This document shows, piece after piece, positions 1,622-41,249 of a DNA stretch of 42,168 nucleotides. The stretch lies in contig CAZXVR010000001.1 in the NCBI GenBank assembly GCA_964644485.1, positions 1-42,168 of the forward strand, given 5' to 3'. Under the pieces are notes generated by a model that saw only the letters and a program-made list of their open reading frames with translations, searched no databases and was not told the origin of the DNA. The stretch comes from an uncultured Candidatus Poseidoniales archaeon (GTDB lineage Archaea; Thermoplasmatota; Poseidoniia; Poseidoniales; Thalassarchaeaceae). The translations under genes were made by a program, and so were the position numbers. The stretch's first letter is position 1. Each line of letters starts with the position of its first letter.

Positions 1622-4129
1622 ATGTCCGCCGAAGAGGAGGCCTGTATTGTCGCGGCTTCCTACCAAGGCACTGGTTCGCAAACGGTCGTCGAACTGTGGT
1701 TACGCGCACGCGAGGGCCATTCTACGCTACTGTTGGTTCATGGATTACGGCCATTCCTTGAAATTGCAGTTATTGGAAAAGCAGCGGATTTGCCAACTGA
1801 CATCGAAGAGCGATTGGAAAAGGTTCGCAAGATTAAGGATGTCACACTGATTCATTCACCAGTCGATAAGTGGACTGATTTAGGCACCAAACCACATTGG
1901 AAGGTCGAGGTCAAGCAACCCTACAATGTACCAAAAATTCGAGACGCTCTGAAATCCGATGGCTGGGTAGTGACCAGTGCTGACATCATTTTCCCCCAGC
2001 GTCTACTGCTCGACCTCGATTTGGGTCCTCATATCTCTTGGAAAGGCGAATTGCTCCCAAAGGATGGCGACGCCATTCGCGATGCTGGTGGAAGGGGATT
2101 GTATCCGACCGATCAGGTGGCGCGCTGCCATATCGATGATTTACGCGCAATCGAAGCATTCGCTGCACCGTTTGTGACCTTTTCATTCGATTTGGAAACC
2201 AGCATCGAAACCGGCCGAATTCTATGTGCCGCGGCAGTGGTTGAACAGAATGGGAAAAGTGAGACACATACTTTCAGAGGCGATGAGCGCGAGATGCTCG
2301 AAGGCTTGACACGCCTAGTGCGTGACAGTGACCCCGATATCATTACTGGATACAATATCGACAATTTTGATTTGCCGAAAATCAAGGAACGAATGGAGGA
2401 ATTGGAAGATTCCAAGGATCGATTGACCAGAGCGATGCTCGCCGGTTGGGGACGAGTTCCCATTACTGAAGAAGCGTGTAAAGGAGGCAGGCGCGGTGCC
2501 CCCATATTGGCGAATCGTCAACAGAATCGCAAGTGGACGCTGAGCGGTCGCTGTGTCATGGACGCTTGGTGGGAAGCGCGAATGACCCTTCGTCCCAAGC
2601 GCGAGACGCTCAAGTTCGTCTCAGAACTATTGTTCCCAGAACGAGAAGAACTCCGCAAGATGGATGTCGATGCCAGCCGTATGGATGAGGAATGGGCGGC
2701 TCGCCCAGATGTCGTTCTCGAATATTGTGCTCAGGACGCACTGCTACCGATTGAGATTCTGGATGCCATTTCAGCTACCGCACGAAAGGAGGCACTCGCA
2801 GCTGTTGGCATGGTGCCACTTGAAACTACGATTATTGGATCAACCAGTCAATGGTTGGATAGCCTCGTCATTCGTTTGGCGGATCGAGAAAACATTGCGG
2901 TTCCCATGACGCGACGAGGAGGCAAATCAGACGCCATCACCGGTGGCTACGTTCATGATATTGAAGGAGGACGTTACCCATGGGTTGCCGTACTCGATTT
3001 CAAATCGATGTACCCCTCAATAATGATCACAAACAACATTTGCCATACAACGCGAGTTGACAGCACAGACGAATCTTCAGAAGTCAACCAATCGCCGAGT
3101 GGCACGAAGTTCCTGAAGAAGGAGGTCCGCGAAGGATTGGTTCCACGTTTGCTACAGGATTTGATGGCACAGCGGGATGAGCACAAAGCGCTGATGAAAA
3201 GCGCCGAAGATGAATCCACACGGATGTTCCATGATCAAATGCAATCTGCGGTGAAAATCCTGATGAACACATTCTACGGTGTATTCGCCTCTGCCTTCTA
3301 TCGGTTTACACATCCCGATATTGGTTCAGCCATTACCGCTTGGGCTCGTTCCAACATCAAGAAAATCATTCACGCACTGGAAAAAGAAGGCCATCCAGTG
3401 GTCTATTCAGATACAGATTCGGTCTTTGTTTCGGCCCCCGAAGAAGGCAAAGAATCCTTGGTTACCTTCGGACATGAATTGGCGAATCGCTTCACCAAAG
3501 AGGGTGCAGAACTTGAATTTGAGAAAGGCCTCTCAGTTTTCTTCAGCCACGGCGCAAAGAAGCGCTATGTCGGTCGCGTGGTTTGGCCCGAAGAGGACTT
3601 GTTGATTCGTGGCTATGAGGTTCGAAGAACCGATTCATTTGATTTGCTCAATAAGACGATGATGGGCACATTCGAACGAATTCTTGATGGGGATGAAGAA
3701 GGGGCATACAAGCATGTCATTGGATTGATTCGCTCGGTCAAGGCAGGTGAAGTCGAGGTGGCAGATCTCATCCTTAGTCGGTCTTGCAAAGGCAAGGTCC
3801 TCAAAGATGGAACCGTTGATTTCTCTGTTTATTCCAATCCCGATGGACTGCCATACGTCCAAGCTGCAAGGAAACGGATAGCACGGGGGTTGCCCTTTAC
3901 ACCCGGGATGAAAGTCAGTTACATTGTCACTGCTGCAAAGGATGAAAATGGCCGACAAGCCGTCGAGCCTTGGCTGGTTGCTGAGACCGGAGATGCGCCT
4001 CCTATACCCGATTGGTCGTTTTATGCCGAACGTCTGGCTCGTGCAATGGGAAGAATCACTGAAGTGTATGGTTGGTCGGACAAAGAGTTGCTTGCGGGTA
4101 GCCGCCAACAGACGTTTGATTTCTTCTGA
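1622..4129 (+). CDS. polB: Family-B DNA polymerase (PolB)
   Basis: Exo I FSFDLETS, Exo II YNIDNFDLPKI, Exo III YCAQDALL. Pol motif A DFKSMYPSIM, motif B KILMNTFYGV, motif C YSDTDSVF. At 835 aa there is no intein-sized insertion. Confidence 0.95.
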   Translation: MSAEEEACIVAASYQGTGSQTVVELWLRAREGHSTLLLVHGLRPFLEIAVIGKAADLPTDIEERLEKVRKIKDVTLIHSPVDKWTDLGTKPHWKVEVKQPYNVPKIRDALKSDGWVVTSADIIFPQRLLLDLDLGPHISWKGELLPKDGDAIRDAGGRGLYPTDQVARCHIDDLRAIEAFAAPFVTFSFDLETSIETGRILCAAAVVEQNGKSETHTFRGDEREMLEGLTRLVRDSDPDIITGYNIDNFDLPKIKERMEELEDSKDRLTRAMLAGWGRVPITEEACKGGRRGAPILANRQQNRKWTLSGRCVMDAWWEARMTLRPKRETLKFVSELLFPEREELRKMDVDASRMDEEWAARPDVVLEYCAQDALLPIEILDAISATARKEALAAVGMVPLETTIIGSTSQWLDSLVIRLADRENIAVPMTRRGGKSDAITGGYVHDIEGGRYPWVAVLDFKSMYPSIMITNNICHTTRVDSTDESSEVNQSPSGTKFLKKEVREGLVPRLLQDLMAQRDEHKALMKSAEDESTRMFHDQMQSAVKILMNTFYGVFASAFYRFTHPDIGSAITAWARSNIKKIIHALEKEGHPVVYSDTDSVFVSAPEEGKESLVTFGHELANRFTKEGAELEFEKGLSVFFSHGAKKRYVGRVVWPEEDLLIRGYEVRRTDSFDLLNKTMMGTFERILDGDEEGAYKHVIGLIRSVKAGEVEVADLILSRSCKGKVLKDGTVDFSVYSNPDGLPYVQAARKRIARGLPFTPGMKVSYIVTAAKDENGRQAVEPWLVAETGDAPPIPDWSFYAERLARAMGRITEVYGWSDKELLAGSRQQTFDFF

Positions 4130-14399: not shown

Positions 14400-14484
14400 G
14401 CAGGGGTTCCCGAGTGGTCAAAGGGGGCGGACTCAAGATCCGCTGTCAAGCGCTTCGCAGGTTCGAATCCTGCCCCCTGCACCA
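14400..14484 (+). tRNA. tRNA-Leu (anticodon CAA), class II with long variable arm, CCA encoded
   Basis: Acceptor gcagggg/cccctgc. Anticodon stem-loop gcgga-CTCAAGA-tccgc, long variable arm tgtcaagcgcttcgca, T-arm gcagg-ttcgaat-cctgc, then A-CCA. Confidence 0.9.
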
Positions 14485-14521
14485 ATTGAAAAATTGATTT
14501 CCCAATTGGAAAATTCAATTT
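14479..14521. promoter_or_regulatory. Bipartite CAATTG-core element, copy A
   Basis: CAATTG at 14483-14488 and 14503-14508, exactly 20 bp apart. The second half is tttcCCAATTGGAAAATtcaattt. The element starts inside the CCA end of tRNA-Leu. CCAATTGG ends 73 nt before the ATPase ATG. Confidence 0.55.
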
Positions 14522-14581
14522 GAACTCAATCCAATACACCACAATAGCGAGGTTCAAACCCCCCGCACCTTTCGCAGCCCC

Positions 14582-17300: not shown

Positions 17301-17810
17301 TTGATATACGCGGATGAACCGACCGGTTATGAGGGGCCACCGGTGAGCAAGATTCGAGTCGATGGCCGCACCATGGCGCTATCCCACCCAACCCGTCTTG
17401 CAATGTATGAAGAACTCCTCAATGCTGAGGAAATGTCAACGGTCATGCTGCAAAAGAGCATTGGTGTCACTCGATATCACCTATACCATCACTTACAATC
17501 CCTTGAGAAGAATGGATTGGTTGAAAATCACAGAGATGAAGGTCGAGCACGATGGTGGAGGGTTACAGAGAGGATTCCCGTGACCCCTGTAGCCGGTAAC
17601 GACTGGGTCGGCAACTTACCTACCGAGGCCCGTGCCCTGTTGGAATCCGGCGCTTCAATCCACTTCATTCCAATTCCCGAGGGCTCAAGTGATATTTCAG
17701 CTACCAAGAAAACACTCGATGGAATGGCTGAGATATTTGATGTCGAAACCACTCCTTTAACACTCATGCCAAATGGCATTCTTGTCATTGGTCCACCCAA
17801 GCGTTCCTAA
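17301..17810 (+). CDS. ArsR/SmtB-family winged-helix transcriptional regulator with an uncharacterised C-terminal half
   Basis: ALSHPTRLAMYEELLNAEEMSTVMLQKSIGVTRYHLYHHLQSLEKNGLVENHRDEGRARWWRV fits the ArsR HTH pattern. The start is uncertain (ATG 17226, TTG 17301, GTG 17343 or ATG 17373). The longest ORF overlaps the ATPase 3' end. Confidence 0.7.
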   Translation: MIYADEPTGYEGPPVSKIRVDGRTMALSHPTRLAMYEELLNAEEMSTVMLQKSIGVTRYHLYHHLQSLEKNGLVENHRDEGRARWWRVTERIPVTPVAGNDWVGNLPTEARALLESGASIHFIPIPEGSSDISATKKTLDGMAEIFDVETTPLTLMPNGILVIGPPKRS

Positions 17811-17822
17811 TGGAGGGATACC

Positions 17823-18218
17823 ATGACCGACGAAGTTCAAGAAATTGAATCGAAGGTAGCCCCTCCTACCGTACACTGTCCAAACTGTGAGAGTATGCTT
17901 CCACACGAACTTGGTGAAGTCACCTGTTCTGTTTGCTCTGCCGTCTCACGTATTGATCACAAGCCTACGCGCGATAATTGGTTGGATGAAAAGGTCAGTT
18001 GTCCTAATTGTCCGAAGATTCTGCGCGTGGGTGTTGATGAGAGGCCTTGCGCTCTCCGTTGCTCGTCCTGTCAATCAGTATTCAAGATTACAAGACACAT
18101 CGTCAAAGTTGAATTGGCTTGCCCATCCTGTGAACGTGAACTTAGAATTCGCCCCCGCCCAGGGAAGAGAAGTTTGAGTTGTCCCGCTTGTTCAGAGTCA
18201 TTTAATGTGACTTTTTGA
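17823..18218 (+). CDS. Cys-rich protein with three tandem zinc-ribbon modules
   Basis: Three repeats of about 40 aa, each with two CxxC knuckles: CPNC...CSVC, CPNC...CSSC, CPSC...CPAC. The gene starts 12 nt after the ArsR stop, and its stop overlaps the next start (TTGA). Confidence 0.7.
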   Translation: MTDEVQEIESKVAPPTVHCPNCESMLPHELGEVTCSVCSAVSRIDHKPTRDNWLDEKVSCPNCPKILRVGVDERPCALRCSSCQSVFKITRHIVKVELACPSCERELRIRPRPGKRSLSCPACSESFNVTF

Positions 18219-24208: not shown

Positions 24209-24469
24209 TCAGTGGAATGTTACTGGAAGGTTATTCCTGAGTGATGCATACTCCTCACCTGAGTATGCTCCGCCAGTTTCTTTCAATGCAGTTGAAATCA
24301 ACCACAATAGCCCATTCCAATCCGACGCTTGAGCGTGTAGTTCGATTTTATTTGCAGCAGCCAAATCAAGAAGAATTCTTGCGTTGCTTCCTCCATCCAT
24401 CAGTCCAAGAAACAGAGTTGATGCGTCGACAGTATAAGTCGGTGCTTGCCCCTTCAATTCAACCACCAT
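24209..24469 (-). CDS. Hypothetical 86-aa protein
   Basis: An ORF whose ATG overlaps the upstream RHH gene stop by 11 nt, an operon-like arrangement. No motif recognised; a weak SCP2-like impression only. Confidence 0.4.
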   Translation of the reverse strand: MVVELKGQAPTYTVDASTLFLGLMDGGSNARILLDLAAANKIELHAQASDWNGLLWLISTALKETGGAYSGEEYASLRNNLPVTFH

Positions 24470-24701
24470 ACGGGGATTGTCCTAGCCTTTCGATAAGCGC
24501 CTCGACATCGGTTTGGCCAATATCTCGAAGTCTGCTTCGCAGCTTATCAGCCTCGGCTCGTAATTGCGCCATTCGGTATTCTTGTAGCACTTGAATCAAT
24601 AGATCATCCACACTTTTGTGGTTACCCATTGCTCGCATTGAATTCAATTGTCGTCTCACATCAAAAGAGACGCTCACAGAGGTCATGTTCGGAGAACCCA
24701 T
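24459..24701 (-). CDS. Ribbon-helix-helix (CopG/ParG/SegB-like) DNA-binding protein
   Basis: MTSVSVSFDVRRQLNSMRAMGNHKSVDDLLIQVLQEY fits beta-strand / helix / helix, followed by a charged helix. The gene lies immediately downstream of the ParA-type ATPase. Start is ATG 24701 or 24686. Confidence 0.6.
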   Translation of the reverse strand: MGSPNMTSVSVSFDVRRQLNSMRAMGNHKSVDDLLIQVLQEYRMAQLRAEADKLRSRLRDIGQTDVEALIERLGQSPYGG

Positions 24702-24760
24702 GTTGTCACCGGTGCGAAGCCCTCCTCGGAGCAACTTGAGCGTGTCGGTCTATTGTGAGA

Positions 24761-25723
24761 CTATTCACCGGTTCGCAGTTGATACTGACGTAGTCGATTG
24801 GGTTCGTTGATTCCATACTTGTGACGAATCTTTAGGACTCGGCGATGTGCTTCCTTTGCAAGTGTCCAATATGCAAGGCTACCTTTGTTAGATTTAGAGT
24901 TGGTCGGTTTCTTGAGAAGTGTAATCGGTGCGCCATCTGAAGGGGCAGCTGCGATATCGATATTCCTTGGAATGACAGTTTTGAAAACGTGGGTGGGAAA
25001 GTGTCGTCGAACTTCTGATTCAACCGTGTTGCACAGTTTGCTCTTTTGATACATAGTCAATGCAATACCGAATAACTTGAGGTTTGGATTGATTCTACGC
25101 TGAACAAGTTTGATTGAATTCATCAATTGACTCATACCTTCCAAGGCGTAGTATTCAGTTTGTACAGGAATTAATACCCAATTTGCTGCTGCCAAGGCAT
25201 TAATGGTAAGCAAACCAAGACTTGGAGGTGTGTCTATGATGATATAGTCAAATTCATCGAATGCAGGACTCAACCCCTCCTTCAATCGAGTTTCACGCCC
25301 AATTCTAGTTGCCAATTCGATTTCAGCCCCCGATAATTGGATGTTACTAGGTAATAGCCAGAGATTTCTCACTCCCATCGTACGAGGGGGCCTCTTGTCA
25401 GGATTATTTTGTCTCCATGCATCTTGCATGTAATCTGTAATGATGTCTGGTCCAATGAGATAATCCTCTAAAATTGGCAACTCTTCTCCAAGGTCATTCA
25501 TGATCAAATCATATACGGTTCGTTCCAATTTACTCTTGTCAATTCCGAATGACGTTGAGGCATTTCCTTGAGGGTCTAAATCGACCAACAGAACCCTTGC
25601 AGGTGGAAACCCATCCTGCTCATTGCCTTTCGCGAGTGCAGTAGCAATGTTCACAGCCGTCGTCGTCTTCGCACAACCTCCCTTCTGATTGGTGACTGCG
25701 ATGACCATCTTGTATGGATTCAT
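24761..25723 (-). CDS. ParA/Soj/SegA-family deviant-Walker-A ATPase
   Basis: VIAVTNQKGGCAKTTTAVNIATALA (KGGxxKT deviant Walker A), LLVDLDPQGN, YIIIDTPPSLG. It has a basic C-terminal extension of about 50 aa. Confidence 0.9.
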   Translation of the reverse strand: MNPYKMVIAVTNQKGGCAKTTTAVNIATALAKGNEQDGFPPARVLLVDLDPQGNASTSFGIDKSKLERTVYDLIMNDLGEELPILEDYLIGPDIITDYMQDAWRQNNPDKRPPRTMGVRNLWLLPSNIQLSGAEIELATRIGRETRLKEGLSPAFDEFDYIIIDTPPSLGLLTINALAAANWVLIPVQTEYYALEGMSQLMNSIKLVQRRINPNLKLFGIALTMYQKSKLCNTVESEVRRHFPTHVFKTVIPRNIDIAAAPSDGAPITLLKKPTNSKSNKGSLAYWTLAKEAHRRVLKIRHKYGINEPNRLRQYQLRTGE

Positions 25724-28747: not shown

Positions 28748-28785
28748 ATTTTCCAATTGGAAGTTTAAACTTTCAATTGAAATCC
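28748..28785. promoter_or_regulatory. Bipartite CAATTG-core element, copy B
   Basis: CAATTG at 28754-28759 and 28774-28779, exactly 20 bp apart. The minus strand reads tCAATTGaaagtttaaacttCCAATTGGAAAATggggtgg-ATG(infB). The element fills the 49-bp ndk-infB spacer. Confidence 0.55.
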
Positions 28786-30238: not shown

Positions 30239-31135
30239 TCAATGCAGTTGTTTGCCTACACTTTCAACCCATCTGATTGGTATGGTGAAATTGTTTTGCT
30301 TGTTCTCAGGCCACGGCCTTCGACCTTCCATTCTCGCCATGTAATCTGCAACATTTACCCGCCATATGGAATCGATTTCAATCGGCGAGTTGAAGTTTGC
30401 ACAAATGATTGCATCATTCCTAGTAATGCGATACATATTTTCTTCAGTGAGATGGGTGACCTGAAATTTCCCGCTTTTACTCGTTAGATATTCAAAAACC
30501 GCTCCACTCTTATCTCTTGCATCAGCATCCTTTGAACCGACAATAATTTCATGTCCCAATTTTTCTGCAATGAGAATTTCACGGATTCGTCCTTTTAGAG
30601 TGATGTCCCCAACTCCAAAATCGGTAACGGCAATTTCCTGGGCTTTTCGCAACTCAGAAATGAACACACTTTCGCCCGAATCACTACTGACTTCAATTGC
30701 TCTACCATTCTTTTCAATCCATGAAATTCGAAAGTGGATCATAATATGTCCATTCGTTTTTTTCGTTGTTTGAAATGCCTGCCTACATTGTTCAGATATC
30801 TTTGACATTTCCACTCGCCATAATCGGGAAATAGAAAAAGGCGAATCGAATTCTGCGAAAATCCAATACTCTGTATCTTGTAGAAGGTGTTCAAATCCGA
30901 TGTCCAATTGAGCGTTCATTTCACCCCATCCTCCCAATGAGAATGTTTTGTATTCAACTTGATTTCCCTTCCCGTCAATCGCATCCTTTCCTTTCTTCCC
31001 TAGGATTAGTGTGTGTCCCATGTTCTTCGAAATTTGATATTCTCGTATGAACCCAGGTTGGAAGGGATCAACCATGTTCGAGTATTCAGCAATGGCTGCA
31101 TTGTAAGCAGCATCAATGTGTTTCTGAAATGTCAT
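30239..31135 (-). CDS. Tandem-duplicated (single-chain) PvuII-like PD-(D/E)XK nuclease
   Basis: Two homologous halves of about 150 aa. Half 1: GFIREYQISKNMGHTLILGKKGKDAIDGKGNQVEYKT ... IFAEFDSPFSISRLWRV ... FRISWIEKNG. Half 2: GRIREILIAEKLGHEIIVGSKDADARDKSGAVFEYLT ... ICANFNSPIEIDSIWRV ... FTIPIRWVESVG. Half 1 reproduces the PvuII catalytic spacing (PvuII D58-x9-E68-x-K70, NDAVDNAGQEYELK; here D51-x9-E61-Y-K63). The C-terminal NNFTIPIRWVESVGKQL resembles PvuII NNPKIPVKYVMEHGTKI. The gene is visibly more AT-rich than its neighbours. Confidence 0.6.
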   Translation of the reverse strand: MTFQKHIDAAYNAAIAEYSNMVDPFQPGFIREYQISKNMGHTLILGKKGKDAIDGKGNQVEYKTFSLGGWGEMNAQLDIGFEHLLQDTEYWIFAEFDSPFSISRLWRVEMSKISEQCRQAFQTTKKTNGHIMIHFRISWIEKNGRAIEVSSDSGESVFISELRKAQEIAVTDFGVGDITLKGRIREILIAEKLGHEIIVGSKDADARDKSGAVFEYLTSKSGKFQVTHLTEENMYRITRNDAIICANFNSPIEIDSIWRVNVADYMARMEGRRPWPENKQNNFTIPIRWVESVGKQLH

Positions 31136-32903: not shown

Positions 32904-32995
32904 TTTTTCGTCTCCTATTGCAGCATCCCATCCTGCTTGTCCACGCACGGGTCGATTGGGCTATTAAACCATCCCATTGCGAAATTAAATCAGTT

Positions 32996-33180
32996 GTTCA
33001 ATTGAAAAAGGCTGATAATCCTATAATTTTCAATTGAATATTCGATAATACGCCCAGATATGCATTTGTTCATTTTCAATTGGAAATGGCGGATAATTGT
33101 GCATTATCAGCCAATTTGAAAATTGACTTCCACAGGAGCGCAATTTCATTTCACCAATTGGTAAATACAATTCAAATTAC
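32996..33180. promoter_or_regulatory. Cluster of CAATTG-core motif copies in an AT-rich divergent intergenic region
   Basis: gttCAATTGaaaa (32999), ttttCAATTGaata (33031), ttttCAATTGGAAAT (33077), CCAATTTGAAAATTG (33111), caCCAATTGGtaaa (33155), aCAATTCaaatt (33168). There are also three GATAAT boxes, one of them in the inverted repeat gataat-tgtgc-attatc (33092-33108). Confidence 0.5.
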
Positions 33181-33223
33181 CCCAATATTCTGGGCGGATT
33201 GAAGTTTGTTCCGGCGAACATTG

Positions 33224-34759
33224 ATGGATACCCTTCCTTTCGAATCGAACATGCTGGAGCATCTTTTGGGGATTCGAGACCTCACGAATGGTTCTTCAGC
33301 TCAAACCACTGGGTTATCCGATGACGTAATCAAACGCTTTCTGTTCAAGACTGACGACGGCGAACCTTCCAAATTGATGCATGCGATTGCGGAAGCAGTA
33401 ATCTCCTTCGATCGCCTGGTCGCAGAATTTGGCATTGAGTATCTGGCTCAAGACGAAGCAACACTTGTCTCTTCTGTCCAAGCTGATTTGATTAATTTTT
33501 ATTCACCAGCAACCATCAACCCCTACGTGGCCATTGCAGCCCGTGGGCCGTGGATTATCACATCAAAGGGAGCCGTACTTCACGACAATGGAGGGTATGG
33601 TATGTTAGGGAGTGGACATGGTCCAGATGCAATCATTGAATCGATGTCCGAGAATTGGGTAATGGCAAATGTCATGACTCCCTCATTCAGCCAGAAACGC
33701 CTAACCGATCGCCTCCGCTCTGAATTGGGTCATACGCGTGGAGATTGTCCATTTACTCGTTTCATTTGTATGAACAGTGGTTCTGAATCAGTGACTGTCG
33801 GTTTGCGAATTGCAGATGTAAATGCAAACAAGCAGACTGGCCCAGGCGGTAGATACGATGGTAAACCAATCAAACTTCTCGCCATTGAACAAGCATTCCA
33901 CGGCCGAACCGATCGCCCGGCCCAAATCTCTCATTCCTGCAAAGATGGTTATGACCAAAATTTAGCCACATTCCGTGATCGCGACAATTTGTTGTTGGTC
34001 CCACCGAATGATGTCCAATCTCTTGAGGCCGCTTTCGCTAAAGCCGAACAAGAGGGTTTCTTCATTGAGATGATGGCAATTGAACCCGTTCAGGGTGAAG
34101 GCAATCCTGGCCAATGTGTAACCAGGGAATTCTATGACACCGCTCGTCGTTTGACTCTTGAGCATGGCAGCCTGCTTCTCGTGGATTCTATTCAAGCTGG
34201 TTTGCGCGGCCAAGGGACCCTTTCAATCATCGATTATCCGGGATTTGAGGACTGTGATGTCCCCGACATGGAAACTTGGTCTAAGGCGCTCAACGCGGGT
34301 CAATATCCATTGTCTGTTCTGGGTATGGGTCCTCGGGCTGCCGAACTCTACGTCGTTGGCATATATGGCAATACAATGACGACGAACCCCAGAGCTCTTG
34401 AAACCGCGATTGCAGTTCTTGATCGTGTTACTCCTGAGTTGAGGAAAAACATCCGAGATCGGGGGGAGGAATTGGTCGAGAAGTTGGAGCTACTAGCAAC
34501 TGAATTACCGGATGTCATCATCAAGGTTCAGGGCACTGGTCTGCTATGCTGTGCGGAATTGAATCCAGATACGCACCCCGTTGTTGGTTTTGGTCAGGTT
34601 GAGGAAATGTGTCGAAAGAATGGGCTTGGCATCATTCATGGAGGCCAAAACGCCCTGAGGTTCACTCCTCATTTTGAGATTACATCGGAAGAGATTGATT
34701 TGGTCGTTGACCTTGTTCGAAAAACCCTCAACCAACACACTGCAAGCAGTTCTGAGTGA
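33224..34759 (+). CDS. Class-III (omega-type) PLP-dependent aminotransferase, divergent
   Basis: MNSGSESVTVGLRIA, AFHGRTDR, EPVQGEGN, LLLVDSIQAGLRGQG (in place of the DE[VI]QTGxGRTG motif), SKALNAGQYPLS (candidate PLP Lys), GNTMTTNPRA. The N-terminal extension is about 100 aa. Start is ATG 33224 or TTG 33206. Confidence 0.8.
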   Translation: MDTLPFESNMLEHLLGIRDLTNGSSAQTTGLSDDVIKRFLFKTDDGEPSKLMHAIAEAVISFDRLVAEFGIEYLAQDEATLVSSVQADLINFYSPATINPYVAIAARGPWIITSKGAVLHDNGGYGMLGSGHGPDAIIESMSENWVMANVMTPSFSQKRLTDRLRSELGHTRGDCPFTRFICMNSGSESVTVGLRIADVNANKQTGPGGRYDGKPIKLLAIEQAFHGRTDRPAQISHSCKDGYDQNLATFRDRDNLLLVPPNDVQSLEAAFAKAEQEGFFIEMMAIEPVQGEGNPGQCVTREFYDTARRLTLEHGSLLLVDSIQAGLRGQGTLSIIDYPGFEDCDVPDMETWSKALNAGQYPLSVLGMGPRAAELYVVGIYGNTMTTNPRALETAIAVLDRVTPELRKNIRDRGEELVEKLELLATELPDVIIKVQGTGLLCCAELNPDTHPVVGFGQVEEMCRKNGLGIIHGGQNALRFTPHFEITSEEIDLVVDLVRKTLNQHTASSSE

Positions 34760-36210: not shown

Positions 36211-36259
36211 GGGAACACCTTGGCGACCTATGACTATCACTTGAACTGACGGGTTGAAT

Positions 36260-36297
36260 ATATCAATTAGAATTTGAGTTTTCCAATTGGAAAATTC
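36260..36297. promoter_or_regulatory. Bipartite CAATTG-core element, copy C
   Basis: CAATTA at 36264-36269 and CAATTG at 36284-36289, 20 bp apart: gttttCCAATTGGAAAATtc. It overlaps the last 10 codons and the stop of uvrB. CCAATTGG lies 73 nt from the dys ATG (36210). Confidence 0.5.
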
Positions 36298-38569
36298 TAT
36301 CTCGTAGACGTGCTGCATTTTCAAAGTCGAGTCGTTCTGCTGATTGATTCATTTCTTTCCTCAATCTCTCAATCAGTTGTGCCTTTGAGTCAAATTCTTC
36401 AGTGTTCACATCGGTATCATCGGGTTGAGATAAATTCGACAGAACGTTGTCTCCCCATGCGCCTGCACCAAGATTGAATTTCTTGATTAGATCACTTTCT
36501 TTGTCCTTTCCAGTTTGTCCAGTGAAACCTCCGACGAATCTTTTTCCACCAGTCACACCTTTCCCTGCAGTCCCTGCCAGCAATTGTTCAGCCTCAATTC
36601 CCATCACAGGCAGTGGCTTCTCAATTGTTTTTGGAGTGATTCCATTCTGTTCGTTGTATGCGATTTGTCTTTCTCTTCGTTCAATCGTTTGAGATATTGC
36701 GGACTCCATGGCTCGACCCATGGTGTCAGCATAGAGGATTACGCGGCCGTTCTGGTTTCGAGATGCTCGTCCAATCGTTTGCAGCAGGCTTCTTTCATTG
36801 CGTAGAAATCCTTCTTTGTCAGCATCAAAAATTGCCACTAGACTTACTTCAGGAATGTCCAGGCCTTCGCGTAATAGATTGATTCCCACAATAACATCAA
36901 TGTGTCCAATTCGAAGCGCTTTGATGATTTCACTTCGCTCCAACGTGTCGATTTCAGAATGGAGATAGTGCGCTTTCACACCCATTCTCTGAAGGTAATC
37001 TGCAACCTCTTCTGCGAACTTGATTGTCATCACTGTAACCAGTATCCTTTCATTTCTCTTAGCACATGTTGTAATTTCATCCAACAAATCCTGAACCTGG
37101 CCTTCCGTAGGTCTGACTTCAATTTCAGGATCGAGTAATCCCGTGGGGCGAATTTCCATTTTCGAAATCCCTTGTATTTCACCTAGGGCATCTTTCAGCA
37201 ATGGTTTCCGCTTTGCCTTTGGGTCGTTTTCTTGAATGGACTGGCCAGTCACTTCGCAAAGTTGTCGTAATTCCCGTTCACCTGGTGTGGCACTCACATA
37301 GAGCATCTGGGGGACCAATGCTTGGAATTCGTGGGCCTTCAATGGTCTATTATCTGCAGCAGAGGGTAGCCTGAACCCATGTTCAATGAGATTTTCTTTT
37401 CGTGAGCGATCACCATGATACATCCCTCCCAATTGAGGTAATGTGACGTGGCTCTCATCCATGATAACAAGGAATTTTTCTTTTGAGCCATGGAACGTTT
37501 GTGCACAGGCTGCAAAGAAATCCAGTAGGCAGTAAGGGCGTTCACCAAAATCGCGGCCATCGAAGTGCATGGAATAATTCTCGACACTGCGACAATGCCC
37601 GATTTCACGCAACATATCCAAATCGTAACGCGTCTTGGATTCGAGACGGTGTGCTTCTAAGTCCATCCCAGCTCTTTCGAAAAAGTCCAATCTCTGTTGA
37701 AGCTCGAATTCAATGTCCTCAAGGGCTCTTTCAAATCGATCTGGACCAGTCATAAAGAACTCCTTTGGGTGAATCCACACCTCTTCAATTTCATCAACAG
37801 TTTCCCATGATACCGCTTCACAAACTTGGATTCTAGTGATTCCATCTAGATCAAATTGGATCCGGATGGGGTCATCTCTACTCGGCATCCAAAGATCGAG
37901 AACTTCACCCCGCAGTCGCAATTCGCCCCGCGAAATTTCTCCCGTAACGCGCCGATATTGAAGCGCAACCAATTCCTTGACAACCTCCCGGGGGTCCACT
38001 TCTTGTCCGACATGTAGTCGGGCGTGTTGCTGCAGAAATGTTTCAGGTGGGTTGAGTCCGTAAATTGCAGATACTGTGGCTACGACAAGAACGTCAGGGC
38101 GTGAAACAAGTGATGCGACAGTAGAGAACCTCTCTTGCTCAATCCGCTCATTCAATGACAACTCTTTCTCGATGTACAGGTCTCTTTTCGGTAGGTAGGC
38201 TTCAGGTTGATAGTAGTCATAATGCGACACGAAATATTCGACCGCATTCTTTGGGAACAAACCCGACATCTCCTGCCATAGTTGCCGGGATAGTGTTTTG
38301 TTGTGCGATAGAATCAGTGTTGGAATATTCAACGTTTGGATGATGTTCGCCATCGCGAATGTTTTACCCGACCCGGTAACGCCTAACATCACACATCTTG
38401 ATTGAGTATTTCTCAATTGAGAAACAGATTTTTCAATTGCAGATTCTTGGTCACCAGCCACTCCATATTCTGAATGAAGTTCAAACCTTGAAATCGAGGG
38501 GTCGAGGTGGGCTTTTGCCGCGCCTTCAAGTGCCTTTGAGAGATCAAATGGGTCCACATCATCACTCAT
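36263..38569 (-). CDS. uvrB: Excinuclease ABC subunit B (UvrB)
   Basis: GVTGSGKTFAMANIIQ (Walker A), FVSHYDYYQPEAY, DESHVT, GINLLREGLDIPEVSLV, QTIGRASRN, and C-terminal LDFENAARLRDRI. The ATG at 38569 overlaps the ubiA-like stop (ATGA). Confidence 0.95.
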   Translation of the reverse strand: MSDDVDPFDLSKALEGAAKAHLDPSISRFELHSEYGVAGDQESAIEKSVSQLRNTQSRCVMLGVTGSGKTFAMANIIQTLNIPTLILSHNKTLSRQLWQEMSGLFPKNAVEYFVSHYDYYQPEAYLPKRDLYIEKELSLNERIEQERFSTVASLVSRPDVLVVATVSAIYGLNPPETFLQQHARLHVGQEVDPREVVKELVALQYRRVTGEISRGELRLRGEVLDLWMPSRDDPIRIQFDLDGITRIQVCEAVSWETVDEIEEVWIHPKEFFMTGPDRFERALEDIEFELQQRLDFFERAGMDLEAHRLESKTRYDLDMLREIGHCRSVENYSMHFDGRDFGERPYCLLDFFAACAQTFHGSKEKFLVIMDESHVTLPQLGGMYHGDRSRKENLIEHGFRLPSAADNRPLKAHEFQALVPQMLYVSATPGERELRQLCEVTGQSIQENDPKAKRKPLLKDALGEIQGISKMEIRPTGLLDPEIEVRPTEGQVQDLLDEITTCAKRNERILVTVMTIKFAEEVADYLQRMGVKAHYLHSEIDTLERSEIIKALRIGHIDVIVGINLLREGLDIPEVSLVAIFDADKEGFLRNERSLLQTIGRASRNQNGRVILYADTMGRAMESAISQTIERRERQIAYNEQNGITPKTIEKPLPVMGIEAEQLLAGTAGKGVTGGKRFVGGFTGQTGKDKESDLIKKFNLGAGAWGDNVLSNLSQPDDTDVNTEEFDSKAQLIERLRKEMNQSAERLDFENAARLRDRIFQLENSNSN

Positions 38570-39417: not shown

Positions 39418-41249
39418 TTTCGAACCTCCCGTTCATACCATTCATCGACCTTTTCCTGTATCTCCGAATCATGGATGCAGACTGCTGGCCATCTTCGCAC
39501 AGGCACCCCACCTTCATTCGAAGGAATAGGGGCTGTAGCATCCCAACAAATCCTATCCCTCTCCGGAGAATAGTGTAAATCTCGACTCACTTCAAATCGA
39601 CAAAATAGCTGCCACAACAATACTCTCATTGCATCATCAGAATCCAAATCGACGCTATCATCAGTGATGAAAATCCAACGTAAATCATTCGATTTATCCA
39701 ATTGCCAAATTGAATTTCTCAATTGCTTTATTTGTTCTCTTTGTTGTTGGGCTGCCTCTTCATTGGGTTGTTCTGTGTTCACCGATTCTGAAGGCCCCTC
39801 TTCGATTCGAGTTGTTACGACCAGCATAGAAGGGCGAATCCAGCGGTATTGGGATATCCCTTCGATGCCTTCTAGAGTCATATTGGGTGCATCTTGTGCT
39901 CGCGGTGTTGACGCATCAATGAGGAGTTTGGAATGAACACCTTCGTATGGCGCTGCATGCGCCAATTGATCCGCGACCATTCCATCAAGTACTACTAAAT
40001 CATCTGGGATTGAAACGTTTTGATCTAACACGTCAAGCAGTGCACCCAAATCCTTGACGTCATGCTCGGGACCTGTGGCGACGATGGTTTTGAGGAACAT
40101 CATTTGGCCAGCCCCCCACAATCCAAGTGCAGTTTTGCGTGCTTGTGCCGGGTATCGTTGCTTAGAGGAAACGATTGCGAGATTGTGAAAACCAGTTTCC
40201 AATGGGAGGAATAGATTTCTCACATCCCGGTGCTGGAATCTTAACACGGGTAGGAAGGCGTCTCCAATGGCCTCACCTAGGTATCCATCCTCCATCGGTG
40301 GTTTACCTACAATGGTCATTGGTATCACGGCATTTTTCCGATGGGTAATTGCAGTCACATGTAGAACGGGGAATTCCCCCTCCAGAGAATAATGACCAAA
40401 GTGATCACCAAATGGCCCCTCCTCTCTTGTTTCACCGGGTATTGTATAGCCTTCAATGACCACATCAGCTTCGGCTGGTACCCACAAATCTTGTGTCAAA
40501 CATTTGGTGATTCGAAGTCGCCTTCCCCCCAATAATCCAGCAAACATGTATTCTTCTAGATTGTCGGGAAGGGGAGCGATTGCGCTGAACATCAATTCGG
40601 GCGGCCCACCTAAGCAAATCGCTACAGGCATTTTCCCGTCACTTGCTGCAGCATGTTCGGCTCCATGTTTGTGCATTTGCCAGTGTAATCCAACTTCCTT
40701 CGGTCCGAAAACTTGGGCGCGATACATCCCCAAATTGTATTCATCTGTTGACGGATCTTTAGTAACGACCAACGGGAGTGTGATAAACGGCCCACCGTCC
40801 ATTGGCCAAGTTGTAGGAATCGGTAATTTTGTCACGTCGGGTTCAGTCATCCGAACCTCTTGGCATGCTCCCCTACGGACCTTTTTGGGTGGTAGTGAGA
40901 GGGCTTTTTTGGCCAATGGCCATGCTTTCCAAGGTCGCTTTGCAAATGTTCCGATATCAGGTTTCATGAGGTCGGTTAGGCGTTCTCCAATCTCGCTTGG
41001 TTTTTCGACTCGTAGGGCTTGATTTGTTCGCCTCCTAGTCCCAAAAAGATTCATCGCCAATGGGAATTCTGAGATTGACCCATCTGCCAATATCGGTTGC
41101 TCAAAAATGACTGCCGGGCCACCATTCTTGACCAGTTTGTCGGCAATGCACCCCGCCTCAAGATAGCAATCCACGGGTTCGCTGATTCGAATAAGATCCG
41201 CCTTGTCTTCCAAAGAGCGGAGGTAGCGTGCCAGTCGGCGCCATCCCAT
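39408..41249 (-). CDS. UbiD-family (prenyl-FMN-dependent) decarboxylase with a C-terminal extension
   Basis: LRSLEDKADLIRISEPVDCYLEAGCIADKL, PAVIFE, GPFITLPLVVTKDP, NLGMYR, HWQMHKHG, GPFGDHFGHY. Start placed at ATG 41249 (MGWRRLARYL...) so that it does not overlap the divergent reductase gene. About 130 residues extend beyond the usual UbiD core. Confidence 0.88.
   Translation of the reverse strand: MGWRRLARYLRSLEDKADLIRISEPVDCYLEAGCIADKLVKNGGPAVIFEQPILADGSISEFPLAMNLFGTRRRTNQALRVEKPSEIGERLTDLMKPDIGTFAKRPWKAWPLAKKALSLPPKKVRRGACQEVRMTEPDVTKLPIPTTWPMDGGPFITLPLVVTKDPSTDEYNLGMYRAQVFGPKEVGLHWQMHKHGAEHAAASDGKMPVAICLGGPPELMFSAIAPLPDNLEEYMFAGLLGGRRLRITKCLTQDLWVPAEADVVIEGYTIPGETREEGPFGDHFGHYSLEGEFPVLHVTAITHRKNAVIPMTIVGKPPMEDGYLGEAIGDAFLPVLRFQHRDVRNLFLPLETGFHNLAIVSSKQRYPAQARKTALGLWGAGQMMFLKTIVATGPEHDVKDLGALLDVLDQNVSIPDDLVVLDGMVADQLAHAAPYEGVHSKLLIDASTPRAQDAPNMTLEGIEGISQYRWIRPSMLVVTTRIEEGPSESVNTEQPNEEAAQQQREQIKQLRNSIWQLDKSNDLRWIFITDDSVDLDSDDAMRVLLWQLFCRFEVSRDLHYSPERDRICWDATAPIPSNEGGVPVRRWPAVCIHDSEIQEKVDEWYEREVRNWV

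Follow-up and report, generated by a model that had tools for sequence, protein, structure and literature searches.

A palindromic CAATTG box, often paired at 20-21 bp, holds orthologous positions in Thalassarchaeaceae and may serve as a transcriptional operator

Tandem operators bound by dimers of dimers are exemplified by NrpR, which recognises GGAA-N6-TTCC in Methanococcus, and by NikR, whose half-sites lie approximately two helical turns apart. Palindromes with A/T arms in the style ATTTTC...GAAAAT are represented in the Firmicutes by the CodY box (AATTTTCWGAAAATT). Paired GATC sites function in bacteria as SeqA or Dam-dependent switches, and the hexamer CAATTG is a classical palindromic site of type II enzymes (MunI/MfeI). 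The Marine Group II archaea rank with the most abundant archaea of the plankton and have never been cultured; to our knowledge, no cis-regulatory signal has been described for them and their transcription control is almost wholly uncharacterised. A literature search on the CAATTG motif in archaea found no description of the box reported here. A Red Sea mdRNA-seq study of Marine Group II transcription start sites reports no promoter motif (PMC5069720).

The DNA analysed here is an archaeal stretch of 42,168 nt with a GC content of 48% (the window). The best named relatives of its aIF5B belong to Candidatus Thalassarchaeum, within the Thalassarchaeaceae (Marine Group II, Poseidoniales). One gene had been called infB in a first-pass annotation made from the sequence; it is the archaeal aIF5B gene, and the organism is an archaeon. 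The window is organised as follows:

Plus strand: a 2061-aa surface protein, tRNA-Leu(CAA), a P1B ATPase, an HTH_20 regulator (17343-17810) and a zinc-ribbon protein (17823-18218)
14400-14484, plus strand: the tRNA-Leu(CAA) itself, whose encoded 3' CCA contributes to the first CCAATTG
Minus strand: L7Ae, S28e, ndk, aIF5B, MoxR and a ParA-like ATPase
Divergent gene pair: a 195-aa gene (minus strand) and a class-III aminotransferase (plus strand, ATG at 33224)
Minus strand, beyond the divergent pair: UbiD, UbiA, UvrB and deoxyhypusine synthase (dys)

Two tRNAs were the sole matches in an Rfam search of the window. The 195-aa gene product was considered as a candidate binder of the box; a family search gave no significant match to it, and inspection of its sequence suggests that it may be a PRC-barrel protein. 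Elsewhere on the minus strand, the ParA/MinD-like ATPase (24761-25723) is followed at 24209-24760 by two small conserved ORFs (approximately 59-91 aa and 86 aa) in a layout that resembles a partition cassette; family searches with the two ORFs produced no informative match. A 298-aa gene (30239-31135, minus strand) sits between PRPP synthase and L7Ae. Relatives lack the gene at this place and have PRPP synthase adjoining L7Ae, and the region upstream of L7Ae in the window is unlike that of all orthologues. The 298-aa product shows a weak likeness to PvuII (Pfam PF09225, E 2.7e-4, below the cut-off; PDB 3ksk, a single-chain PvuII, E 3e-4) and is about twice the length of PvuII. It may be an inserted, tandem-fused PD-(D/E)XK nuclease.

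Spacing and anatomy of the CAATTG boxes

The window contains four pairs at 20-bp spacing, three of them exact CAATTG repeats and one a CAATTA/CAATTG combination, and a fifth pair whose spacing is 21 bp. The coordinates that the first-pass annotation gave for the first four were all correct (CAATTG at 14483/14503, 28754/28774 and 38414/38434; CAATTA at 36264 with CAATTG at 36284), and the shared 13-mer CCAATTGGAAAAT lies exactly where it had been placed, at 14502-14514 (+), 28748-28760 (-) and 36283-36295 (+). The fifth pair (39699/39720) had been overlooked. The pairs and the four single boxes are located as follows:

14477-14514, pair A: cores 14483-14488 and 14503-14508, 20 bp apart
28748-28785, pair B: cores 28754-28759 and 28774-28779, in the ndk-aIF5B spacer
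32993-33166, four single boxes: cores at 32999, 33031, 33077 and 33155, with gaps of 32, 46 and 78 bp
36258-36295, pair C: cores CAATTA 36264-36269 and CAATTG 36284-36289, in the last 9 codons of uvrB
38408-38445, pair D: cores 38414-38419 and 38434-38439, inside uvrB, approximately 130-155 nt past its start
39693-39731, pair E: cores 39699-39704 and 39720-39725, 21 bp apart, in the UbiD-family gene

It had been estimated that far fewer than one exact 20-bp pair should arise by chance in the window, and the calculation agreed: 0.023 pairs were expected against the three observed, and none of 300 second-order Markov simulations yielded three or more. Random placement of the 41 CAATTG sites likewise never produced three or more 20-bp pairs in 5000 trials. 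No other 6-bp palindrome in the window formed more than two pairs at any one spacing up to 60 bp. The hexamer itself is not unusually frequent (41 copies, against 38.5 under a trinucleotide-preserving model and 24.6 in dinucleotide shuffles). Since CAATTG is not over-represented once trinucleotide composition is kept, its abundance is compositional and the signal resides in the pairing and the flanks.

Comparison with neighbouring spacings led to the same result. Across 0.69 Mb of related loci, a spacing of 20 bp occurred 47 times and one of 21 bp 10 times (counts that include orthologous copies and hence are not independent), and all other spacings shorter than 32 bp were absent; peaks further out, at 32, 46 and 78 bp, come from the single boxes of the divergent spacer. 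Independent box positions number approximately 8-10, all within one syntenic region of about 50 kb. The notion of a non-random, recurrent element composed of two dyads about two helical turns apart was therefore borne out. Viral and metagenome contigs were scanned with CAATTG-N14/15-CAATTGNNAANT; among the matches listed, nearly all were chance occurrences from unrelated habitats and at most about four loci had a Marine Group II-like composition. A control built on these loci was set aside, being biased by the way they had been chosen.

Column counts over 65 distinct copies, together with a scoring matrix, define the repeating unit as the 18-bp palindrome ATTTTYCAATTGRAAAAT, i.e. ATTTTY-CAATTG-RAAAAT. 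A pair consists of two such units with a variable gap of 2 bp (sometimes 3 bp), and what appears as a 14-nt spacer is the right arm of box 1, the free gap and the left arm of box 2. The cores were invariant and the spacers variable across 30 aligned copies; the C and G that adjoin the core proved to be variable, constrained only to Y and R. At a threshold of 12 bits the matrix, which was trained on the pairs only and thus had the single boxes outside its training set, detected 14 boxes in the window where 1.8 were expected, namely the five pairs and the four single boxes. None of the remaining 27 CAATTG copies reached the threshold. The 18-bp unit, the single boxes and the nucleotide-level selection on the coding-embedded copies C, D and E had been absent from the earlier description.

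Conservation of the sites and selection within coding sequence

We compared 31 loci around aIF5B, taken from species-representative genomes, and 11 around the ATPase and UbiD orthologues. The five pairs and four single boxes are kept at orthologous positions in lineages with 55-96% protein identity, with invariant cores and drifting spacers. Boxes persist even at 59.5% GC (L281). One lineage (L282) retains only the boxes of the divergent spacer and is without pairs B-E. Lineages that have no box at all include L021, L022, L024, L025 and L279.

Box 1 of pair A overlaps the CCA end of tRNA-Leu(CAA), and from box 2 it is 79 nt to the downstream ATG of the P1B ATPase (14582). The pair follows tRNA-Leu in L272-L275 and L277, is shifted by 40 nt in L278, is present in L276 and is missing from the distant L279. 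An inverted HAD-hydrolase gene separates the intact pair A of L276 from the ATPase-HTH_20 operon: the pair overlaps the convergent hydrolase stop approximately 800 bp from the ATPase start, and the operon's own upstream spacer contains no box. The box-free L279 shares this gene order, and L277 and L278 have no HAD gene. The L276 arrangement weakens the link between pair A and the ATPase and ArsR-like genes, and leaves room for a boundary or architectural role. The adjacent ArsR-like (HTH_20) protein, which had been put forward as a candidate regulator, is accordingly disfavoured by this inverted gene and by the occurrence of boxes at unrelated genes.

A separate feature of L276 (9054-9158) is that the last 25 nt of tRNA-Leu (ggttcaaatcctgtcccctgcacca) are duplicated 80 nt downstream of the tRNA, beside pair A. 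The repeat looks like an attachment-site scar left by an element integrated in the tRNA gene.

The ndk stop (28786, minus strand) and the Shine-Dalgarno/ATG of aIF5B (28736, minus strand) are separated by 49 nt, most of which belong to pair B. This pair was found in 23 orthologous loci, at a spacing of 20 or 21 bp, with invariant cores and a spacer that drifts; 8 more distant loci, all of which have a short ndk-aIF5B spacer, are without it.

The four single boxes occupy the divergent spacer between the 195-aa and aminotransferase genes (32904-33223) and are conserved in approximately 25 loci, including lineages that lack pairs B-E. A second conserved dyad, GGC(G/T)GATAAT-N5-ATTATCAGCC, is present in this spacer at 33086-33110, and GATAAT recurs at a fixed 7-9 nt after the cores of boxes 1-3 (32999, 33031 and 33077). 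The pattern suggests a further site, in the style of those read by metal regulators, interleaved with the CAATTG boxes. The divergent spacer was also considered as a replication origin and discarded: neither an orc1/cdc6 gene nor a skew switch was found in the window, where GC skew merely follows gene orientation.

Pair C spans the end of uvrB, such that the TGA stop codon falls in the TAATTGA of its second core (minus strand). Its cores lie 59 and 79 nt upstream of the dys ATG (36210, minus strand), and at least 14 loci retain the pair, 12 of them at an unchanged distance from the dys ATG. A sequence shared by pairs A and C had been reported to stand exactly 73 nt from the start codon of both the ATPase and dys. 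The equality is numerically true (core to ATG is 79 nt in both), but the boxes are not equivalent, since the promoter-proximal box of pair A is there set against the distal box of pair C. In the same uvrB-dys spacer (approximately 36215-36255, minus strand), a conserved inverted repeat, GACCCGCCA-N13-TGGCGGGTC, occurs just upstream of the dys Shine-Dalgarno. This repeat is clearer in L004, L007, L023, L027 and L030 (approximately 3435-3470), the copy in the window being degenerate, and may represent a leader structure.

Pair D encodes the UvrB peptide A-I-E-K-x-L-S-Q-L. Codon choice along the gene was examined in 12 orthologues (78-95% identical to the UvrB of the window), which provided 492 degenerate columns with an invariant amino acid. 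A single codon was used throughout in 31 of the 492 columns, and all four core codons of pair D are among these 31. They constitute the sole codon-invariant column for Leu (1 of 64) and for Ala (1 of 31), one of the two for Ile (of 32 columns) and one of the three for Gln (of 23). For comparison, TTG accounts for 27% of Leu codons and CAATTG encodes 26% of Gln-Leu dipeptides. Pair E falls within the conserved region that encodes the C-terminal part of UbiD, with approximately 290 nt left to the stop codon and to the start of ubiA; L005, L009 and L011 retain it, as L280 and L281 do in part. The three copies located in coding sequence (C, D and E) are, as judged from these alignments, under selection at the nucleotide level.

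About 7 kb past the right end of the window, an extra CAATTG pair with 21-bp spacing occurs in L280 (2589-2615) and L281 (2660-2686). It overlaps the Shine-Dalgarno and first codons of an enoyl-CoA hydratase gene and is kept at 49% and 59.5% GC. The arms of this pair are poor, and it may be held by coding constraint alone.

Promoter-like geometry and a proposed mode of action

Canonical promoters without a CAATTG box precede L7Ae (...GCG-TTTATAC) and the 195-aa gene (TTTAATAG), and we therefore regard CAATTG as a gene-specific signal rather than a general BRE or promoter signal. The motif CAGTTGG-TTTATAC upstream of L7Ae was entertained as a box joined to a TATA element and rejected, as orthologues reveal CAGTTG to be specific to the window, where it lies beside the inserted gene.

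Downstream of TTTAATAG, the 195-aa gene has approximately 24 nt of variable sequence and then a conserved leader. A similar arrangement was observed at box 2 of pair A and at box 4 of the divergent spacer, where a core that is 100% conserved is followed by an A/T-rich arm, by approximately 26 nt of near-random sequence of fixed length and by a conserved block from +41/+42. The distance from the start of the TATA to the conserved block is 32 nt in the TTTAATAG promoter, which matches that at the box sites (counted on orthologous sequences). From core to ATG, 79 nt separate the two in four ATPase lineages; for box 4 the distance is 69 nt in at least nine aminotransferase lineages, with variable intervening sequence. 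We infer that box 2 of pair A and box 4 may each form part of a TATA-spacer-leader footprint in which the core occupies approximately -41 to -36, the BRE position.

The conserved leader blocks of the ATPase (14541-14581; ATAGCGAGGTTCAAAC...) and the aminotransferase (33196-33223; GATTGAAG...) both start about 41 nt after the core and both hold TTCAA or TTGAA, possibly a common leader or initiator signal. Marine metatranscriptome contigs that match the loci were sparse, short and derived from other lineages.

Taken as a whole, the data lead us to favour, at a probability of roughly 0.55, a gene-specific operator box for a putative dimeric protein, with tandem boxes bound cooperatively at or on the core promoter. 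The lineage-specific, cis-acting box ATTTTY-CAATTG-RAAAAT would be read as double-stranded DNA by a homodimer that makes contact with the invariant CAATTG at the centre and exploits the A/T tracts on either side. With boxes 20-21 bp apart, i.e. two helical turns on the same helix face, two dimers could bind cooperatively. The boxes would act in transcription initiation, the promoter-proximal box being placed directly upstream of the presumed start at the ATPase and the aminotransferase, and possibly at dys and aIF5B. With CAATTG in the BRE position and the right arm RAAAWT in the TATA position, a bound protein would either block access of TBP/TFB or bring them to a weak TATA.

An operator for a dimer-of-dimers regulator had already been proposed in the first-pass annotation. 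The conserved cores, the drifting spacer, the restriction to 20 or 21 bp and the lack of covariation all fit that proposal; binding by a protein, the dimeric state of that protein and its repressing or activating effect are what we infer from them. Several observations count against an operator. Pairs D and E are situated well inside genes, with no obvious initiation target, and pair A of L276 is intact at a tRNA remnant and convergent gene stop, approximately 800 bp from the ATPase. At aIF5B, a promoter rule counted from box 1 would give a nearly leaderless transcript, yet the gene has a strong, conserved Shine-Dalgarno (GAGGTGA).

Alternative readings and comparison with known systems

The whole pair resembles an imperfect palindrome of approximately 38 bp, and pairs A, B and C directly follow genes, as might be expected of an RNA or DNA hairpin (a terminator, processing site or translational element) in which the cores and inner arms pair. 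The apparent palindrome is, however, fully explained by two adjoining palindromic boxes. When cores and inner arms were paired in 30 copies, 83.9% of cells could pair as against 83.1% in column shuffles, so that pairing is no better than column composition predicts. The covariation score (0.131) was equalled by 133 of 500 shuffles of the 30 copies, which denotes no compensatory excess, and a separate count agreed. An RNA hairpin is consequently not supported. A U-run 3' of the stem was not found; RAAAAT follows the second core and a T run precedes the core, the opposite of an intrinsic terminator, and Rfam contained no match to the element. Single boxes and the strict 20/21-bp spacing would also be unexpected. 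We consider a hairpin very improbable and, on account of the absent covariation, the reversed order of the T and A runs and the missing Rfam match, read the element as DNA. A selfish intergenic repeat of the REP/MITE type, the other suggestion made for the element at first, appears less plausible still and is close to dismissed. The boxes are short, palindromic, recurrent and often at gene ends, and pair B makes the ndk-aIF5B spacer approximately 25-30 nt longer than in lineages where it is short. Yet only the core and arm consensus is common to the copies, which have no similarity over their whole length; nearly all Thalassarchaeaceae loci carry them at the same positions, which are fixed across genera; copies persist in coding sequence under selection; and neither terminal repeats nor target duplications were found. 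A DNA methyltransferase target, with the pairs acting through methylation state, is about as improbable as a hairpin. The type II palindrome and the placement of pairs two helical turns apart on one helix face agree with it. The kept copies, though, all have conserved A/T arms, a context missing from the other 27 CAATTG copies, so a longer recognition sequence is indicated, and the window has no methyltransferase gene.

Two further DNA readings are unlikely but deserve more weight. The box could be a core-promoter element, a palindromic BRE-like CAATTG with TATA-like arms that is read by TBP and an alternative TFB; this would define a second, potentially bidirectional promoter class and need no separate regulator. 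The core stands directly before an A/T-rich 8-mer, a fixed-length variable spacer and a conserved block, as in a BRE-TATA-TSS array, and the box-carrying spacers have no other recognisable TATA. On the other side, BRE and TATA are asymmetric, and the TATA is usually the better conserved, whereas it is a perfect central palindrome that is invariant here; the box is missing from the clear canonical promoters in these loci; and tandem copies at 20 bp, or copies deep in uvrB and ubiD, would make little sense. A more specific version, to which we give a little less credence, is a second Poseidoniales promoter class that is inherently bidirectional and recognised by an obligatory recruiter or by a paralogue of a general factor; boxes kept in coding sequence would then mark fixed internal or antisense starts in streamlined genomes. 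An alternative core-promoter element would be of wider interest for archaeal transcription. Doubtful to a similar degree is a site for an architectural, boundary or replication-type protein that is not tied to promoters, for example a nucleoid protein, an Orc1/Cdc6-like reader of ORB elements, or a factor that serves as roadblock or insulator where transcription units end. Boxes do turn up between tandem genes, between divergent genes, at a convergent junction (L276) and inside genes, and the preceding gene ends next to or within each of pairs A, B and C. Furthermore, TTCCAATTGGAA resembles the Pyrococcus ORB core TTCCAGTGGAA, and Pyrococcus ORB clusters are also found inside a gene (PMC1904270). 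Strict conservation of position over long divergence suggests gene-specific roles instead, the distance to downstream starts is fixed, and the invariant TTCC and GAA of ORB correspond to variable Y/R positions here, around a centre that is 1 nt longer.

Whichever protein may read it, a conserved and recognisable box, at which selection has fixed codons in uvrB, offers a concrete handle on transcription control in Marine Group II. Scanning MAGs for the box can delineate a regulon, a 40-bp duplex could be used as bait for the binding protein, and the interpretation of metatranscriptomes would be aided.

Among described elements, REP/BIME and MITE sequences are likewise short palindromes that recur at gene boundaries; unlike them, the CAATTG box displays no full-length likeness among copies, no signs of mobility and no stabilising covariation. 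The CAATTG core and A/T arm would be placed like an archaeal BRE and TATA, as judged from the spacer and downstream block, but the box is perfectly palindromic, occurs in tandem and is absent from canonical promoters of the same loci. With ORB and mini-ORB elements (PMC1904270) it has in common a TTCC..GGAA dyad, an A-rich flank and a capacity to be conserved inside genes; it differs from them in its AATT centre (3 nt in ORB) and in its invariant positions, and the boxes, unlike ORB, are not clustered around an AT-rich unwinding element next to orc1/cdc6. The resemblance to the CodY box is one of sequence style only, the centre and the domain of life being different. NrpR- and NikR-type operators are unrelated to it in sequence, and their cognate proteins have only a putative counterpart here; in the CAATTG box it is the central 6 bp, rather than two outer half-sites, that are most conserved, and copies are found in coding sequence as well. 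What the CAATTG pairs share with operators of the NrpR/NikR type is dyad half-sites at an integral helical-turn spacing, conserved cores with a free spacer and, at pair A and box 4, a site that may overlap or abut the core promoter.
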